Shown here: piece after piece, positions 3,405-24,737 of the stretch
Layout of the letters: each line of letters begins with the position of its first letter
Position numbering within the stretch: the first letter of the stretch is position 1
DNA from: a virus
Length of the DNA: 33,678 nt
Virus record (IMG/VR): IMGVR_UViG_3300005074_000010
Direction: 5' to 3' (one strand)
Position numbers and translations under genes: made by a program
The notes under the pieces: model-generated
What the model was told of the DNA's origin: nothing
Databases searched by the model: none
What the model saw: only the letters and a program-made list of their open reading frames with translations

Positions 3405-4247
3405 ATGGAAGCTAACCGCATATACAAGCCTAGTAGGTTTAGTAGGTATACAATAGTGCCTACTAGTGTTTTTAGATTGAAAGGTATAACAGCTGGAGCT
3501 ACAGGCTTATACTGTTATTTATTCTCTCACGAAGTAGGGCAAAGTATAACAATAAAATTTATTACTAATCACTTTAAAGAGGGTAGGGACGCCATTAACG
3601 CGCGTTTAAAAGAGCTCGAAAAACATAACTTGTTAATCAGAACACCTATTAAGGATAAAGGCAAATTTGCTGGATATAGTTACTATCTAAACGACCTACA
3701 AACACTAGAAACCGATAACGGGAAAACCGTAACGGAAAATCCGCACCAAAGTAATAATAAAAATATAAGTAATATAGATACTAACTCAACAGCTTACAGG
3801 TCCCTAGAGCATTTTATAGCTCTGTTCCCTGAAAAATATAGGCCTACTACAGATAATCAGAGGTATAAATGGTATCAATGCCTAGATAGAATAGAAAGGC
3901 TGGATAAGTATAACTTGAGAGATGTGTATAAAGTTTGCCAAAGGCTCCGTACAGATGAATTCTGGTCTGTAAATTTTTTAACACTATTGAAACTCAGAAA
4001 CCTAGATAAGAATAATATAAAATTTATTGATAGGTTTATGGATAAGTACAGTATAGAAGCTAAACCGAAATGCTACTACAAAATTAAAGGAATAGTAAAA
4101 TATTTCACATATGAACAAGATAATCAGTTACTATTAGGTGCAAAGACAAAAACAGTAACGCTATATGATTATAACCTGAGAAACGTCTTTAATGACGATG
4201 AGTATAACTTAATCTATGAATACACTAATGGGTCTGATAAGGAATAG
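3405..4247 (+). CDS. Putative replication organiser / winged-helix DNA-binding protein
   Basis: The N-terminus (YTIVPTSVFRLKGITAGATGLYCYLFSH...INARLKELEKHNLLIR) resembles phage replication initiator N-terminal wHTH domains. Located upstream of the primase-helicase. Confidence 0.5.
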   Translation: MEANRIYKPSRFSRYTIVPTSVFRLKGITAGATGLYCYLFSHEVGQSITIKFITNHFKEGRDAINARLKELEKHNLLIRTPIKDKGKFAGYSYYLNDLQTLETDNGKTVTENPHQSNNKNISNIDTNSTAYRSLEHFIALFPEKYRPTTDNQRYKWYQCLDRIERLDKYNLRDVYKVCQRLRTDEFWSVNFLTLLKLRNLDKNNIKFIDRFMDKYSIEAKPKCYYKIKGIVKYFTYEQDNQLLLGAKTKTVTLYDYNLRNVFNDDEYNLIYEYTNGSDKE

Positions 4248-8165: not shown

Positions 8166-8173
8166 TATATTTG
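8166..8173 (+). promoter_or_regulatory. -7 promoter box TATATTTG, only 4 nt before the terS ATG
   Basis: Exact TAnnTTTG. The ATG is at 8178, which implies a leaderless or near-leaderless transcript. Confidence 0.45.
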
Positions 8174-8177
8174 TACT

Positions 8178-8519
8178 ATGAGTAAAACGGAGCAAAAAAA
8201 AGAAGCATTACTAGAAGCTCTAGAGATGTCTTTAGGAGTAGTTACTACAGCCTGTAAGCGTATAGGTATAACTAGAGGCACTTACTATAATTGGCTTAGA
8301 GATGATAAAAACTTTAGAGAGCGCGTACAGGATATAAATAATATTGCCTTAGATTTTGCAGAGAGCAAACTCTATGAGCTTATCAAGACAAATAATGTAC
8401 CAGCTACCTTATTCTATCTAAAGACCAAAGGTAAATCTAGAGGCTATATAGAGAGGTCTGAAGTTAGTGTAGAGGGTAATTTCAAATCTAAAGTAATCGA
8501 ATGGACTCCAGCAGAGTAA
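8178..8519 (+). CDS. terS: Terminase small subunit
   Basis: 113 aa, HTH (CKRIGITRGTYYNWLRDDKNFRERV), overlapping and immediately upstream of terL. Confidence 0.7.
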   Translation: MSKTEQKKEALLEALEMSLGVVTTACKRIGITRGTYYNWLRDDKNFRERVQDINNIALDFAESKLYELIKTNNVPATLFYLKTKGKSRGYIERSEVSVEGNFKSKVIEWTPAE

Positions 8520-14446: not shown

Positions 14447-14471
14447 TAGTAAGTCAATACTATAAAAATTA

Positions 14472-14499
14472 AGAGGTCAATTATGGCCTCTTTTTTTTT
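14472..14499 (+). terminator. Rho-independent terminator after the capsid gene
   Basis: Stem agaggtc/ggcctct (7 bp, one G.U), loop aattat, then T9. Confidence 0.75.
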
Positions 14500-14531
14500 G
14501 CTTTTTTTTGAAATTTTGACAAAATCGCATA

Positions 14532-14571
14532 TACGATTTAAGGCCATTTTTCGGCGTTTTGCGGGACTTTC
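14532..14571 (+). promoter_or_regulatory. Iteron/operator-like motif cluster R2
   Basis: tacgatttaag ... ggcgttttgcgggactttc, about 80% identical to 147-186. A nearby palindrome tttgc-ca-gcaaa lies at 14608-14619 and ttttgcg at 14682-14688. Confidence 0.55.
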
Positions 14572-14706
14572 CCACCTCGCTGATATATGACATTCAAAAA
14601 TTTTTGTTTTGCCAGCAAACGAAATTTTCCAGAGAAGAAAAAATCACGAAATAAAAAAAATTAAAAAAAATTTTAAATTTATTTTGCGAAATCCAAAAAA
14701 AGTTAA

Positions 14707-14714
14707 GACATTTG
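14707..14714 (+). promoter_or_regulatory. Imperfect -7-like box GACATTTG (TTTGTAT core) upstream of the island genes
   Basis: One mismatch to TAnnTTTG; 31 nt before the ATG at 14746. Confidence 0.3.
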
Positions 14715-14745
14715 TATCAACATTAACAACGCAAACAACAACACT

Positions 14746-14913
14746 ATGACAACAGTAAGCAACACTAAGGAAATCCGCTCAATCAATATTGAAAAAGTGC
14801 TAACCTCTTACAAGGTTACCTGTATGAAAGGTAATCAAGTAATAGTAAAGCGCTTCGACTCTGAAGAGTTCGCTAATCTTTTATCATCAACGTTCAACGC
14901 GTTAATCAACTAA
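14746..14913 (+). CDS. Island small ORF (55 aa)
   Basis: Hand-translated (MTTVSNTKEIRSINIEKV...). Preceded by the AACAACACTATG leader. Confidence 0.45.
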   Translation: MTTVSNTKEIRSINIEKVLTSYKVTCMKGNQVIVKRFDSEEFANLLSSTFNALIN

Positions 14914-15091: not shown

Positions 15092-15160
15092 AGTCGTTAG
15101 GGCGACTCTAAATAGGTTACTAAGCCCTAAGCGTTTGCCTCCTAGTAAGTCGGGAGGCAA
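15092..15160 (+). ncRNA. Bipartite hairpin element, copy A
   Basis: P1 is cgttagggc (15095-15103) / gccctaaGcg (15124-15133). A single T follows. P2 is ttgcctcc (15135-15142) / ggaggcaa (15153-15160). Confidence 0.6.
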
Positions 15161-15200
15161 GGAAACAATAACAGGAGGAAACTCCACAAAACACAAAAAA

Positions 15201-15900: not shown

Positions 15901-16075
15901 AGAGCGTATAACAGGAATGGCTAAAGTAGCCACTATTACAGACCTAAAAACAATAGTAAGTAATCTAAAGAAAAAAATGATTATACCTGTATTATACAAA
16001 GGTTACGCGGAAGATAAGCTAATTTTAGACATATGTTCTGCTGAGCTGGAGAGTCGTTTGAGCGACTTAAAATAG
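15878..16075 (+). CDS. Island hypothetical protein (65 aa)
   Basis: ORF track only. Confidence 0.5.
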   Translation: MKHYQYTKERITGMAKVATITDLKTIVSNLKKKMIIPVLYKGYAEDKLILDICSAELESRLSDLK

Positions 16076-16121
16076 CGTTTAAGCTCAAAGCGTGCGTATA
16101 GCTAGGTCAAGTGCTATACGC
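16052..16121 (+). ncRNA. Bipartite hairpin element, copy B
   Basis: P1 is cgtttgagc (16055-16063) / gctcaaaGcg (16083-16092). A single T follows. P2 is gcgtatagc (16094-16102) / gctatacgc (16113-16121). Confidence 0.6.
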
Positions 16122-17146: not shown

Positions 17147-17154
17147 CAAGAGGA

Positions 17155-17226
17155 CAGGGCCTCTATAAATAGTACTTAAGCCCTGAGCGTTCCCCTAGTT
17201 TTGTGTTGTTGTTGTTGTACTAGGGG
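17155..17226 (+). ncRNA. Bipartite hairpin element, copy C
   Basis: P1 is cagggc (17155-17160) / gccctg (17180-17185) with loop ctctataaatagtacttaa. P2 is cccctagt (17192-17199) / actagggg (17219-17226) with a (GTT)4-containing loop. Confidence 0.5.
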
Positions 17227-17251
17227 AGGTGTAACTAAAAAATTTTTAATA

Positions 17252-20071: not shown

Positions 20072-20528
20072 TAGTGCAGTAATAATATCTCCAGCCGATA
20101 TGAAGCGCCTACAGAAAAAAATGGGTAAGCTAAAGTTGCTCAGTTCTGCAGGTTTATCTAGGGAGGTAGCACACACCCTACTAGATATAACTAAAAAAGC
20201 TGTTACTAAGGCGCCTGTAGCTAAAAAAGGTAAAAGCGGTGGTACTCTAAGACAAAGTATAAAACCTACTGTACAAGGTCTTACAGGTTATGTAGAGGCC
20301 TCAGCAGAATATGCGCCCTATATGGAATTTGGTACAGGTGTTGCCTACAGTAGCTCACAATTAGACGCTTTAGGTATACCTACTAGCTACTCAGCTCAAT
20401 TTTTGGGTAAAGGCATTAGAGAAGTAAATTTAGAGCCCAGACCATTCTTATTTAACTCAGCTAGAGAAGCGTTTGGTGCTATGTTAGGTAGATTGAATGT
20501 AAAAATTAGAAAAGAACTAAGAAAATGA
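20064..20528 (+). CDS. HK97 gp10-family tail-component protein
   Basis: TKKAVTKAPVAKKGKSGGTLRQSIKP...AEYAPYMEFGTG. The ATG at 20064 is preferred over the TTG at 20049. Confidence 0.75.
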   Translation: MTNSAVIISPADMKRLQKKMGKLKLLSSAGLSREVAHTLLDITKKAVTKAPVAKKGKSGGTLRQSIKPTVQGLTGYVEASAEYAPYMEFGTGVAYSSSQLDALGIPTSYSAQFLGKGIREVNLEPRPFLFNSAREAFGAMLGRLNVKIRKELRK

Positions 20529-21367
20529 GGTCAGTAACACAATACATAAGAAAAACATTTATAGACGCCCTTAGTAATAAAATCTATCCTACTATAGGAG
20601 GAGAACTAGTAAAAGACGGTAGCTTTACTAATCCTAGTAATTATACTGTTACAGGTGGCTGGTCGATTACAACAGGAGCTGGTGCCTTTAATGATAATAC
20701 TAGCGGTAGAGTATCGCCTAGTAATTTACTTACTAGTACAGGTTATCTAACAAACGGCAAAAAATATTTACTATCTTTTGATGTCCTTACTGATTATTCA
20801 CACGCGAATATATGGTTAGGTACGGCTAATGGTGCAGACCCATATATAGCCAATTATTCAGATTATACTAACGGTACACATATTATACCTTTTACTATTA
20901 GTACTACACAAGACCCTATCAACTTAGCATTCTATGCTACTACAGGTAATCCAGGTCCATTTACTATAGATAATATTAGATTGATACAGATAAGCAGTAC
21001 TACAGCTATCAAGATATATAATAAAGTGCCTAGTAATGTATCATATCCTTTCATAAGAATATACAGCCAAGAAGAAAGACAAATAGATAACAACAATAGT
21101 AGATTTATGAAGGATGTTATTACACGTATAGAAGTAGTACACAGGAATACTACAGCTAGTGGTGGAGAGCTACTAAATAACAGTATTGTCAATCAAATCA
21201 CTAGTATATTAATGCCTAATCCTGGAGAATCTTTACCTATCACAGATTACAATATCAGTATATATAGTACTGAGCTTCTTGGTATTACAAACTTTCAAGA
21301 TACCTTTAAGGACTTCACATATCACCGCTCAATTATAGAAATTTCTACTAGAGTAGAATTAGTGTAG
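20525..21367 (+). CDS. Tail-completion (DUF3168/gp17-like) protein carrying an internal CBM-like beta-sandwich insertion
   Basis: The ends are gp17-like (IYNKVPSNVSYPFIRIYSQ...ITRIEVVHR). The centre has GGELVKDGSFTNPSNYTVTGGWS...YLLSFDV...FTIDNIRL, a CBM4/9-type pattern. Confidence 0.55.
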   Translation: MRSVTQYIRKTFIDALSNKIYPTIGGELVKDGSFTNPSNYTVTGGWSITTGAGAFNDNTSGRVSPSNLLTSTGYLTNGKKYLLSFDVLTDYSHANIWLGTANGADPYIANYSDYTNGTHIIPFTISTTQDPINLAFYATTGNPGPFTIDNIRLIQISSTTAIKIYNKVPSNVSYPFIRIYSQEERQIDNNNSRFMKDVITRIEVVHRNTTASGGELLNNSIVNQITSILMPNPGESLPITDYNISIYSTELLGITNFQDTFKDFTYHRSIIEISTRVELV

Positions 21368-21386
21368 CTATATTAATTATTTTTAT

Positions 21387-21394
21387 TATATTTG
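21387..21394 (+). promoter_or_regulatory. -7 promoter box TATATTTG
   Basis: Exact TAnnTTTG within ...ttattatatttgtac..., in the gap after 21367. Confidence 0.5.
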
Positions 21395-21585
21395 TACTGT
21401 AATCCTGTAAAATTCTTTGGCAGAGAAAAGAATCTTAGTGGGTCGCTCTGAGACCTGAGGATTACTAAGTATCAAGGGCCCAGACTATGGGAACTGAGAA
21501 ACTTTTTCCCCTCACCGGGAAAAAATTTCTCTAAAGATAGACTGGGACTCCTGATACCGATAAACAGGTAAATGAACAGGAGCTA
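21395..21585 (+). ncRNA. ORF-free, highly structured transcript leader / candidate ncRNA
   Basis: A three-way junction spans 21399-21465 and its two terminal loops share a 5-nt complementarity. An 89-nt rod-like hairpin spans 21469-21557. Visibly more GC-rich than its surroundings. Confidence 0.5.
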
Positions 21586-21750
21586 ATGAACGATTTTAAT
21601 ACACCTTTCCGCACTTTTTTCTACTCACTTAAGGCAAAAGCTATACGCTCCTGGAATAGTGCCTTAAACAGGCTTAAAATCGGTTGCAAATGCAGAGTAT
21701 ACAAAGATGATTACAAGAACGCTAAATGTTGTGATTGGTCGTGGAGGTAA
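21586..21750 (+). CDS. Possible 54-aa basic, Cys-rich micro-protein
   Basis: Hand-translated: MNDFNTPFRTFFYSLKAKAIRSWNSALNRLKIGCKCRVYKDDYKNAKCCDWSWR. Below the ORF-track cutoff; it may instead be part of the RNA element. Confidence 0.3.
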   Translation: MNDFNTPFRTFFYSLKAKAIRSWNSALNRLKIGCKCRVYKDDYKNAKCCDWSWR

Positions 21751-22013
21751 ATGAAAACAGTAAAGTAACTTTAGACCTAAAGACAATAGGTATGATAATA
21801 GGGTTTGTTATCAGTTTAAGCTCTATGTACTTTGTACTCAAATCAGATATAGCATTAGCTATGACATTACCTGAGCCTGAGGTAAGCAAAACAGAATATG
21901 AGCTAAAGGACAAAATAATTAGAGAAGCTGTACTAACTACACAAGAAGATGTAAAAGAAATAAAATCAACACTAGAGAAATTAGAGGTAAGAATATATGA
22001 GCTTAAAAAATGA
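21735..22013 (+). CDS. Single-pass membrane protein with a coiled-coil C-terminus (holin/antiholin or spanin-like candidate); non-ATG start
   Basis: TM helix TIGMIIGFVISLSSMYFVL followed by a charged helical tail. First gene of the envelope/lysis cassette. Confidence 0.5.
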   Translation: MVVEVNENSKVTLDLKTIGMIIGFVISLSSMYFVLKSDIALAMTLPEPEVSKTEYELKDKIIREAVLTTQEDVKEIKSTLEKLEVRIYELKK

Positions 22014-22342
22014 GAAATTTCTTACTAATATCATTTCTAATGTTTTTTACTGCTACATTTGGTCAATATAAGAACGATATATCTGTAGTACAGTTTACCG
22101 CTGAGTTTGTTACTAGCGCTTCACTAAAAGAATTCACAAAATACAATACATATACATTTTTTATAGAGGAAGAATCTGATAAATTCGATAAAGAGGATAT
22201 ATCATTTGTGCCTACTATAATACTATATCATAACGGTAAGGAGATTAAGAGAATAGAATCTAATATAATGCTAGAGCTACCTAAAGAATGGAGAAAAGAA
22301 ATACTAGAAGAAATAGAAGCTATAACCTCACAAAAATTCTAA
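22010..22342 (+). CDS. Secreted thioredoxin-fold-like protein lacking CxxC
   Basis: Signal peptide MRNFLLISFLMFFTATFGQ. FVPTIILYHNGKEI resembles the thioredoxin cis-Pro/beta strand motif. No Cys pair is present. Confidence 0.45.
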   Translation: MRNFLLISFLMFFTATFGQYKNDISVVQFTAEFVTSASLKEFTKYNTYTFFIEEESDKFDKEDISFVPTIILYHNGKEIKRIESNIMLELPKEWRKEILEEIEAITSQKF

Positions 22343-22710
22343 TCTTATACTGTACACTAACTCAAGCACAAATCATTGAACCAGATAAGATAAGCCATTT
22401 TTTAGGAGGCGGTCTTACTAGTGCTGTTACATATGAATATACGGACTATAAGACCTCTAGTAAGAGGCTAGCTCTGAAAAACTCGATTTTTTCTAGTATC
22501 TTTATAGGCACGATTAAAGAAGCATATGATAGTACACAGCCTAATAACGTATTTGACGGCCAAGATTTAGCCTACAGCGTTCTAGGAGGTGTTACAATTG
22601 CTTTTACGTTCAACCTATTAAACAGAAACAAAAATGAAAAAATTAATAATAATCTTGTTCGCTCTTATCGTAAGCATAGGAAACGCTCAAGAAAAAAAGA
22701 AAAAAAATAA
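22288..22710 (+). CDS. Putative exported/membrane protein, overlapping both neighbours
   Basis: Signal-like KILILYCTLTQAQ, DKISHFLGGG and KEAYDS...DGQDLAYSVLGG motifs, and a C-terminal hydrophobic segment. Overlaps its neighbours by 55 nt and 77 nt. Confidence 0.45.
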   Translation: MEKRNTRRNRSYNLTKILILYCTLTQAQIIEPDKISHFLGGGLTSAVTYEYTDYKTSSKRLALKNSIFSSIFIGTIKEAYDSTQPNNVFDGQDLAYSVLGGVTIAFTFNLLNRNKNEKINNNLVRSYRKHRKRSRKKEKK

Positions 22711-23731
22711 TTTCTTAAAGGAGATATTTAAGTACAGCACATTCTACAGTAGCTTTACAGAATCAAGCCCTCTTATAACACCAGATAATTACTTTGTAAC
22801 ACAATTAGGAGATGTTATTAATATAACGCCTGATAAAGAGAACGATTATAATATATCTGTAGGTATTAGAAAGATAGCTAGATTTGATTATGAGAATAAA
22901 GCAAAAAAATATTATGACGGCACAGAGAATAACTCTAGCTTAAATAGTAATGTAGGCTCTATTAGAGGTCTAGAGTATTTATTTCAGTACTCTAAAGGAA
23001 TGCAAAGAGGTATGAAGTTCACTAGTGAAAGATACTATATGAGATACTCTGGTAAATGGTGGAGCTCTAAGCTAGAGATGAACAATAACGGATTAATAGA
23101 CCTTAACTATAAATCTGCGGACCTTAGAGTAAGATTGCCTATTAAGGGTAATTTTTCTATTAGTATTGGCTCTACTTTAAGAACACATAAACCTTACGGA
23201 TATAATCCTATAGAGAGCTATCTCAGTAGTAACGCCTGGTGGGACCTGGCCTACTCTTACAATTATCAAGACCACTACTACGGAATAGATTATGATAATG
23301 ACGGCTTTACTGATGACGCTGATTGGTGGTGGAGTGATTCTGAAGGTAATAGAGTAGCTGATACAGATTTAGATTTCAGAAGAAACGTATATCAGAACAT
23401 AGTAAACGATTATAACAGGCGCGAATTAGACAAAATAGGCACTTTAGGGACACTTTCAGGAGTTTTAGGTATTGATTACTATATCTACAGAAATAATTGG
23501 TATTTGCACGCCTTTGCTAATATGTACCCAATACATAAGCATATGTTCGGAGATGAAGAATATAGCTATGAGGTATATGTAGGTAAAGATAATTGGCTAG
23601 ATTATAACGCTGGGCTAATGTACGGCTGGGATATTAGTAGCAAATTAGGTTTATTTACAGAGTATGAGATTACTAAATTTTGGGACAAAGAGCTAAGCTT
23701 TTTAAAGGCTGGTATCAATTATAAATTTTAA
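22634..23731 (+). CDS. Secreted outer-membrane beta-barrel-like protein
   Basis: Signal peptide MKKLIIILFALIVSIGNAQ. Alternating aromatic-rich strands, an Asp-rich DYDNDGFTDDAD..D.D.D loop, and a C-terminal ...GINYKF ending in Phe. Confidence 0.55.
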   Translation: MKKLIIILFALIVSIGNAQEKKKKNNFLKEIFKYSTFYSSFTESSPLITPDNYFVTQLGDVINITPDKENDYNISVGIRKIARFDYENKAKKYYDGTENNSSLNSNVGSIRGLEYLFQYSKGMQRGMKFTSERYYMRYSGKWWSSKLEMNNNGLIDLNYKSADLRVRLPIKGNFSISIGSTLRTHKPYGYNPIESYLSSNAWWDLAYSYNYQDHYYGIDYDNDGFTDDADWWWSDSEGNRVADTDLDFRRNVYQNIVNDYNRRELDKIGTLGTLSGVLGIDYYIYRNNWYLHAFANMYPIHKHMFGDEEYSYEVYVGKDNWLDYNAGLMYGWDISSKLGLFTEYEITKFWDKELSFLKAGINYKF

Positions 23732-23732
23732 T

Positions 23733-23748
23733 TTTTGTACCTTTACTA
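23733..23748 (+). promoter_or_regulatory. Promoter-like box TTTTGTACCTTTACTA (class 2)
   Basis: Paired with 19191-19206; 15 nt before the ATG at 23764. Confidence 0.4.
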
Positions 23749-23763
23749 TAAAAATTTTTAAAT

Positions 23764-24123
23764 ATGGAATTGAAATGGTTTAGATTATCTGAGTTTGATG
23801 AGCCTAAAAAAAAGGGCTCTGGCGCTAAGATGAGTAAAGATTTATTACTAATGTTAGACGACCTTAGAAACAAGTTTGGCAAGCCTATGAAGATTACTTC
23901 AGGTTACAGGTCTGAAAGCTACAATAAAAAAATCGGTGGCGTTAAAGATTCTTCACATATAAAGGGCCTTGCTGTTGATATTGCCTGTAACAACAGTAGA
24001 GATAGATTTATGATTGTAAAGCTAGCTCTAGAAGTAGGATTCAGACGTATAGGAATTGCAGAAACCTTTGTACACTTAGATATTGATACAGAAAAATCTG
24101 GTAAACTTATTTGGACTTACTAA
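23764..24123 (+). CDS. Endolysin, peptidase M15 family (zinc D-Ala-D-Ala carboxypeptidase / L-Ala-D-Glu peptidase type)
   Basis: ITSGYRSESYNKKIGGVKDSSHIKGLAVDI ... FVHLD matches the M15_3 signature. Confidence 0.85.
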   Translation: MELKWFRLSEFDEPKKKGSGAKMSKDLLLMLDDLRNKFGKPMKITSGYRSESYNKKIGGVKDSSHIKGLAVDIACNNSRDRFMIVKLALEVGFRRIGIAETFVHLDIDTEKSGKLIWTY

Positions 24124-24729: not shown

Positions 24730-24737
24730 TATATTTG
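24730..24737 (+). promoter_or_regulatory. -7 promoter box TATATTTG (in TTTTGTATATTTGTA)
   Basis: Exact TAnnTTTG, 14 nt before the ATG at 24752. Confidence 0.5.

Follow-up and report, generated by a model that had tools for sequence, protein, structure and literature searches.

The phi29 pRNA is a ~170-nt RNA built around a three-way junction, with two mutually complementary loops that pair between molecules. The Alu domain of SRP RNA (Bacillus, archaeal) places a three-way junction with paired hairpin loops at the 5′ end, followed by a long rod that is closed by the 3′ end. Purine-riboswitch aptamers, which lie right after a promoter, consist of a closing helix and two hairpins with conserved, interacting loops, and the lysine riboswitch has a 6-bp L2-L3 kiss comparable to the loop pairing discussed below. 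Other "orphan" phage RNAs have lately been recognised as decoys against CRISPR, as mimics of guide RNAs or as self-assembling cages. For example, intermolecular kissing loops are used by the pentamers and the 60-mer cage of manA (bioRxiv 10.64898/2026.07.01.735769) and by the ROOL and GOLLD cages (PMC12286853), while the Racr RNA anti-CRISPRs (PMC10651486), tracr-L and the viral sgRNAs (bioRxiv 10.64898/2026.06.01.729453) are phage accessory RNAs.

In this work we analyse a 33,678-nt stretch of viral DNA (IMG/VR record IMGVR_UViG_3300005074_000010), which we refer to as the window. Judged by its sequence, one region of it encodes a real and evolutionarily conserved RNA fold without a described family, which can move between phage genome positions. 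The features of this region are listed here; L055 and L074 are contigs that carry the RNA in other genomic contexts.

21387-21394, + strand: Bacteroidota-type -7 box, TATATTTG, part of the module
21399-21465, + strand: domain 1, a tight three-way junction of 67 nt (MFE, RNAalifold)
21399-21406 / 21458-21465, + strand: helix H1, GUAAUCCU/AGGAUUAC, 8 bp
21412-21418 / 21427-21433, + strand: core of helix H2, AUUCUUU/AAAGAAU, 7 bp
21408-21418 / 21427-21437, + strand: H2 as extended by UAA/UUA past one A.C mismatch, ~11 bp
21440-21444 / 21452-21456, + strand: helix H3, GGGUC/GACCU, 5 bp including one G-U
G21407, G21438-U21439 and G21457, + strand: the unpaired junction bases, 4 nt
21419-21426, + strand: loop L2, GGCAGAGA, with CAGAG at 21421-21425 complementary to L3
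21445-21451, + strand: loop L3, GCUCUGA, with CUCUG at 21446-21450 complementary to L2
21466-21468, + strand: linker UAA joining domains 1 and 2 (UAG in L055 and L074)
21469-21557, + strand: domain 2, a rod of 89 nt (MFE, compensatory pairs)
Base of the rod, + strand: conserved GUAUCA/UGAUAC, bulged A21475, GG/CC, then CCCAGACUAU/AUAGACUGGG
21489-21495 (5′ GGGAACU) and 21532-21536 (3′ UAAAG), + strand: conserved asymmetric internal loop of the rod
21496-21531, + strand: hypervariable distal hairpin of the rod, 36 nt in the window
21558-21561, + strand: conserved YGAU, directly 3′ of the rod
21562-21585, + strand: lineage-specific adaptor, absent from L055 and L074
21586-21750, + strand: Cys-rich ORF of 54 aa, a genuine gene outside the RNA

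The MFE structure of 21397-21565 is exactly this three-way junction plus rod. It reaches -58.8 kcal/mol, compared with -38.1 +/- 4.1 kcal/mol for 200 dinucleotide shuffles (z = -5.1), and none of the shuffles was equally good (0/200). Most of the architecture had been proposed in an initial annotation of this DNA, whose 191-nt span gives z = -4.4. The -7 box, the 89-nt rod and the 5-nt complementarity of the loops are all found where it had placed them, and H1, H2 and the junction fold as the MFE; H3, which it had drawn with 4 bp, has 5 bp including the G-U pair. Of random pairs made up of one 8-nt and one 7-nt loop, ~1.1-1.4% would have a Watson-Crick match of 5 nt, and elsewhere in the window there are no sites complementary to L2 or L3.

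The same annotation had described the stretch as richer in G/C than its flanks. This is true of the upstream side, where the G+C content is 0.26-0.31 and that of the element 0.43-0.44, but not of the downstream ORF, which is also at ~0.40. Its view that there is no credible ORF here was borne out: no frame is open through the element across the variants described below, and in most variants there are stops in every frame. Furthermore, the changes among variants are pairwise-compensatory and not codon-periodic, so a conserved peptide is not indicated.

At the gathering threshold, Rfam 15 reports no family for the RNA, and its only matches in the window are three pistol ribozymes elsewhere. When the threshold was relaxed to E <= 10, the search of positions 21300-21800 returned nothing meaningful, and no family could be assigned to the long forms of the RNA in L074 and L055 either. 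ARAGORN found no tRNA or tmRNA in the window. The novelty that the initial annotation had made dependent on such a search is therefore upheld, as no described family meaningfully matches 21300-21800 even at E <= 10. Among the candidate identities that we considered, tRNA-like and SRP-Alu readings have no model support and a hammerhead reading fails because the junction lengths and sequence are unsuitable. K-turn and 11-nt tetraloop-receptor readings of the internal loop were rejected by eye, since the G.A or CC/GG positions on which these motifs depend lack conservation.

How does the RNA compare with the systems above? Like pRNA, manA, ROOL and GOLLD, some of which have their own promoter, it is a phage-borne, protein-free structured RNA. 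However, it has no sequence or model similarity to any of these, including no match to the phi29-type pRNA model (RF00044). The 5-nt loop complementarity is present and conserved, and may be intra- or intermolecular. A pRNA role is unlikely because DNA packaging in this phage relies on a portal and an ordinary large terminase; the module in the window (large terminase, portal, protease and HK97-type capsid) is a standard one and unlike that of a phage with a protein-primed genome and a pRNA-dependent motor. The topology is also the topology of SRP RNA, but S-domain motifs and a match to any SRP model are absent and the distal part of the rod is hypervariable.

The likeness to purine riboswitches, which the initial annotation had pointed out together with the absence of the purine consensus, holds for the architecture: a closing helix, two hairpins with conserved loops, and a position right after a promoter. 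It does not extend to the details. There is no match to the purine riboswitch model (RF00167) at E <= 10, the junction has 4 unpaired nucleotides and not ~18, and the arms are unequal, at ~11 bp and 5 bp. Moreover, two of its three contexts offer no gene to regulate; only in the window lineage does the RNA lie in the 5′ UTR of a gene that it could control through an expression platform.

The three pistol ribozymes of the window lie on the + strand at 15092-15161, 16052-16097 and 17149-17234 (62, 44 and 40 bits, gathering score 34.5), between small ORFs in a variable island after the capsid gene. Could the RNA represent a new class of self-cleaving ribozymes or RNA-processing elements, one that severs the late transcript like the pistols? 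The two share a genome and a similar intergenic setting, with the pistols 4-6 kb upstream; the copies in L055 and L074 even occupy the same post-capsid variable island that holds the pistols here, and the compact core has invariant unpaired bases. However, the pistol, hammerhead, twister, twister-sister, hatchet, hairpin and HDV models give no match at E <= 10, just 4 nt of the junction are unpaired, and it is not obvious what a ribozyme would cut if it were made from a promoter of its own and ended at a terminator of its own. Pistols are also absent from L055, L073, L074, L075, L076, L086, L088 and L090, so the link between the RNA and the pistols is not a recurrent one. We consider cleavage an improbable function.

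The gene upstream of the RNA (20525-21367) is a tail-terminator homologue that has just three close protein clusters among 5.8 billion sequences. In all contigs encoding those clusters the RNA comes after the tail-terminator gene and is followed by the same genes. These contigs come from marine metagenomes, with genomes of ~34 kb, and provide six distinct versions of the RNA. In this clade no stretch has diverged more than the RNA, with 65-84% identity compared with 88-97% for the flanking genes, and its pairing is retained. The rod tip is swapped wholesale among variants: it measures 36 nt in the window, 60 nt in L002, L006 and L053, and well over 100 nt in L055 and L074 (~130-145 nt as counted from the sequences, ~130 nt in L055). 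At least five unrelated versions of the tip can be seen. One contig, L017 (3870-4040), differs from L001 only in its rod tip, which it has in common with the window; recombination has thus taken place inside the RNA gene.

Altogether the family consists of eight distinct sequences in three clades, all of them metagenomic. The homologue and covariation analyses that had been proposed for this element came out in its favour, with compensatory changes in H1-H3 and in the rod. In an alignment from which the tip was excised and which holds six distinct variants, 94% of cells are paired and 18/51 pairs have changed on both sides, a value reached by 0/500 shuffles; when the 3′ partners are slid by 1-3 columns, pairing falls to 37-53%. 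RNAalifold, run on five of the six window-clade versions, recovers H1, H2, H3 and the lower rod, with 15/45 pairs changed on both sides. In domain 1 taken by itself, over the three clades, 96.8% of cells are paired and 12/23 pairs are compensatory (H1 3, H2 7, H3 2), in an alignment that was fitted to the model and is thus somewhat favoured by it. The lower rod contributes nine compensatory pairs, and its sequences are unrelated yet complementary: CCCAGACUAU/AUAGACUGGG in the window, CCUUGGUCU/AGACCAAGG in L055 and GGUUAAGUCC/GGACUUAACC in L074.

The strand on which the pairing occurs can be read from the mismatches. G-U cells outnumber A-C cells by 18:2 and 13:1, which places the pairing on the + strand, where the promoter box and every gene also lie. 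This bears on whether the structure acts as DNA (a cruciform, origin, packaging or recombination site) or arose by chance. The minus strand of the element does fold well too (z = -5.9), as such a site would predict. Nevertheless, the 18:2 ratio, the compensatory changes, the constant distance from the promoter box to H1 in three contexts and the different genome position in related phages all speak for an RNA, and we give a DNA-level or chance origin almost no credence.

Outside the helices, conservation is concentrated in a few places. L2 (GGCAGAGA) is unchanged in 8/8 variants and L3 has the family consensus RCUYUGA. The junction bases G, GU and G, the linker UAR, the bulged A of the rod and the YGAU after it are conserved without pairing, as are the GG... 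on the 5′ side and the YAAAG on the 3′ side of the internal loop; the G-U pair that closes H3 is conserved as well. Within the proposed loop-loop helix the sole change is a C to U in L074, which turns a G-C into a G-U pair, and there is no compensatory change. Since the one substitution keeps a pair, L2-L3 pairing is compatible with the data, though unproven.

The two other clades were found by different routes. L055 came from a pattern scan of metagenome contigs that was filtered with a covariance model of domain 1, and this phage has 70% identity to the window in its capsid protein. Its RNA (3895-4161) stands immediately after the capsid-gene terminator behind its own TATCTTTG box. A terminator follows at 4201-4217, the next ORF is 330 nt further, and the whole unit is flanked by a duplicate of the capsid terminator. 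We then fetched 65 loci around related capsid genes and searched them with the model, which revealed the third clade (L074, L073, L140 and L143). In it the RNA again comes after the capsid terminator behind a TATCTTTG box, and runs into a convergent 171-aa gene. Loose loop patterns yielded further L074-type copies and otherwise only chance matches within coding regions.

The long RNAs of these clades have in common an extra helix above the internal loop, GUUCAUUGAU / GUCAUUGGAC(UAUC), at 4001-4020/4131-4150 in L055 and 7103-7115/7228-7250 in L074, which is missing from the short window-type RNAs. The convergent ORF of L074 (7282-7797, - strand) includes the sequence HEIKH, an HExxH motif, and is perhaps an accessory gene of metallopeptidase-like type.

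The distribution is otherwise sparse. The other 63 related loci contain no copy of the RNA, and a weak model match in L088 was rejected as a homologue as it lies within coding sequence. Neither the window nor any of 70 related loci has the RNA twice, and the exact 36-nt tip pattern has no match in viral contigs. A scan of 185,579 genomes, one per prokaryotic species, gave 14 pattern matches that were all rejected by the covariance model, i.e. no cellular homologue at the stringency of that scan. BLASTN of the three RNA forms against cultured phages produced nothing useful. The capsid protein is less than 33% identical to that of any cultured phage, so no host can be assigned.

The promoter box deserves a closer look. 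On its own the -7 box is not significant, as TANNTTTG occurs 25 times in the + strand of the window. In its extended form, TATATTTGTAC, the box is seen again ahead of other genes: as TATATTTGTAC(T) it stands 4 nt before the ATG at 8178, directly ahead of which the same box can be written TATATTTGTACT, and similar boxes are located at 24730 and 28897. In the other clades the TATCTTTG box precedes H1 by 4 nt (L055) and 5 nt (L074), so that the distance from box to H1 is alike in all three. Transcription is predicted to start at about G21399, the first base of H1. As a side observation, a box TA..TTTG(TAC) followed 4-5 nt on by an ATG occurs at 8166-8180 in the window, 683-705 in L035 and 8296-8315 in L055, and this spacing suggests leaderless mRNAs made from Bacteroidota-type promoters.

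What the locus looked like without the RNA can be seen in relatives of the 90-aa protein encoded downstream, of which there are hundreds. The closest one outside the clade, in L035 (74% identity), has the box TAAATTTG, 4 nt and then the ATG of a homologue of the 54-aa ORF, with no RNA. In the lysis cassette of L055 a small ORF likewise sits right behind the promoter box without an RNA leader, and more distant relatives have no gap whatsoever. The leaderless ORF behind the box in L035 and L055, together with a Shine-Dalgarno sequence that is found only in the window lineage, indicates that a promoter box plus a leaderless ORF is the ancestral state. In the window lineage, ~190 nt are inserted between the promoter box and the ORF.

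The 3′ ends tell a similar story. In the free-standing copies YGAU leads into a U-run (L055 CGAUUUUUU, L074 UGAUUUU). The window has no such U-run and no terminator after the rod, nor any strong + strand terminator downstream of 21560, and the RNA is therefore physically a 5′ leader here. Its adaptor (21562-21585) contains AGGAG at 21578-21582, the only strong Shine-Dalgarno of the window; none of ~40 other starts has one. The 4-codon mini-ORF ATG AAC AGG AGC TAA (21572-21586) has a stop that overlaps the ATG of the next gene (TAATG). Together, the Shine-Dalgarno and mini-ORF look like a repair of translation after the insertion. In the gene behind them, substitutions between the window and L001 are mostly synonymous or conservative, and homologues with CxCRVYK..(A/S)KCC are found in L035 and L055. 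We also observe that AATGAAC is duplicated within 21562-21588.

The initial annotation favoured a regulatory leader that times the lysis cassette. In such a cis-acting riboswitch or thermometer, domain 1 would sense a signal, and pairing of the Shine-Dalgarno region would switch the 54-aa ORF and the cassette behind it. The aptamer-like architecture with its invariant loops and junction fits this idea, as does the presence here of the window's sole Shine-Dalgarno. Furthermore, when the tail is included, in the 191-nt span, the MFE (-61.1 kcal/mol) pairs UCCUGU from the 5′ strand of H1 with ACAGGA of the Shine-Dalgarno region in place of H1, nearly isoenergetic with the H1 fold, and CUCCUG in the 3′ strand of the rod is complementary to CAGGAG. 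Yet covariation backs H1 and not the alternative pairing, the tail with the Shine-Dalgarno is missing in L055 and L074, and the host type normally makes no use of such sequences. In addition, the L055 copy is terminated and the L074 copy faces a convergent gene, so that in two of the three contexts nothing downstream could be regulated, and the lysis cassettes of relatives have no such leader. We therefore regard a regulatory leader as unlikely to be the primary function. Given the near-isoenergetic pairing, the RNA may in this lineage also have a secondary influence on how the 54-aa ORF is translated.

The other option raised in the initial annotation, a stand-alone phage ncRNA, fares better, with free-standing copies behind their own box in two clades. 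The same RNA in three contexts, at the same distance from the box and with a differing 3′ neighbour, is the signature of an autonomous ncRNA module (a "moron") and not of a lysis leader. In our preferred reading, which we think is probably correct, 21387-21561 is such an autonomous, movable promoter plus ncRNA gene, whose product acts in trans in late infection as a scaffold or decoy. That the RNA acts in its own right, in trans and late, is what we infer from these contexts, and our best guess is that it is a compact scaffold or decoy which binds a host or phage factor via the invariant loops and the internal loop. Fast-evolving stems that keep their structure, invariant loops, a dispensable tip and an accessory spread all fit this description.

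The proposed mechanism would run as follows. From a host-type (Bacteroidota) -7 box, transcription of the + strand would begin with the opening base of H1. The conserved core is the junction with its two complementary invariant loops, plus the lower rod with the bulged A and the GG / YAAAG internal loop. The rod tip is freely replaceable. The module is accessory and changes both phage genome and position: two clades have it as a free-standing unit behind the capsid gene, and in the window clade it would have landed between a promoter box and the once-leaderless small ORF that heads the lysis cassette. There, read-through and the newly gained Shine-Dalgarno and mini-uORF would keep the 54-aa ORF expressed.

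The promoter-proximal position in all contexts and the two structured domains also recall processive antitermination, i.e. a HK022 put-like RNA that modifies the RNA polymerase transcribing it, and L055 has terminators downstream for such a polymerase to pass. A put-type antiterminator makes little sense of the remaining contexts, however. In L074 read-through would run antisense into the convergent gene, the window has no strong + strand terminator beyond 21560, and the fold is unlike the two stem-loops of put. This explanation seems to us very improbable.

A more specific version of a decoy is one directed against CRISPR defence, where the rod would mimic a repeat:anti-repeat stem with its bulge and dispensable upper stem, and the replaceable tip would track the repeats of hosts. 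Like tracr-L, the viral sgRNAs and Racr, the RNA is a phage accessory RNA with its own promoter in a "moron" layout, it evolves quickly, and it resembles tracr-L and the viral sgRNAs (bioRxiv 10.64898/2026.06.01.729453) in having a bulge between a lower and an upper stem and a loop whose length varies widely. In addition, the L055 tip (4043-4077, - strand) scores 29.5 bits with CRISPR-DR37, for which the gathering score is 40 (E = 0.0005, 141 nt searched). But this sub-threshold DR37 match is on the minus strand and of low complexity, and may be a coincidence; the + strand match, to DR21, has 16 bits; the window tip has no CRISPR-DR match, and no CRISPR repeat or anti-repeat is found in sense orientation in the window at E <= 10. 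The RNA also has no guide segment and no conserved tracrRNA tail hairpins. Its 5′ end is instead the 67-nt junction, the sequence after the rod is unconserved between clades, and a three-way junction of ~70 nt has no counterpart in known guide RNAs. We judge mimicry of CRISPR RNA to be quite improbable, somewhat more so than cleavage. On its minus strand the window tip also has the GUGAGGGG-AAAAAG of L055.

Returning to the scaffold or decoy module, the role of the loop complementarity within it may take two forms: it would either lock the fold or, the arms being unequal, join copies. With H2 at ~11 bp including a mismatch and H3 at 5 bp, a coaxial intramolecular kiss of 5 bp would need a sharp bend, and pairing between molecules is a serious alternative in this model. 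By analogy with pRNA and the RNA cages, one may take this further and envisage a self-assembling phage RNA, where CAGAG of L2 and CUCUG of L3 pair between molecules to give closed dimers or rings and the replaceable rod tips would point outwards. We offer this tentatively, as a possibility slightly ahead of the regulatory leader. If correct, it would be a small (~165 nt) RNA-only quaternary assembly encoded by a movable accessory gene of marine Bacteroidota-type phages.

If our preferred reading is right, the RNA is an undescribed, covariation-supported family, and a movable accessory gene of uncultured marine phages, with a compact ~110-nt core that has a built-in complementary loop pair. What is new here is the family of RNAs; by function it may yet fall into a known category. 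The locus would also offer a natural experiment, the same RNA being free-standing and a 5′ leader, and an example of a leaderless gene rescued after an insertion via a Shine-Dalgarno and a mini-uORF in an otherwise SD-less genome.

Two further observations concern the surroundings of the RNA. After the capsid terminator there is a conserved non-coding stretch of ~250 nt (window 14465-14740, L055 4194-4360; 65% identity over 175 nt), which includes AATTTTCCAGAG and no ORF, the first plausible small ORF of the window being near 14747. Finally, the lysis-type cassette (21735-24123) has an unusual position between the tail-terminator gene and the tail genes. It encodes the 90-aa membrane protein, 110-aa and 140-aa signal-peptide/lipoprotein-like proteins, a 365-aa secreted protein and a Peptidase_M15_3 endolysin.
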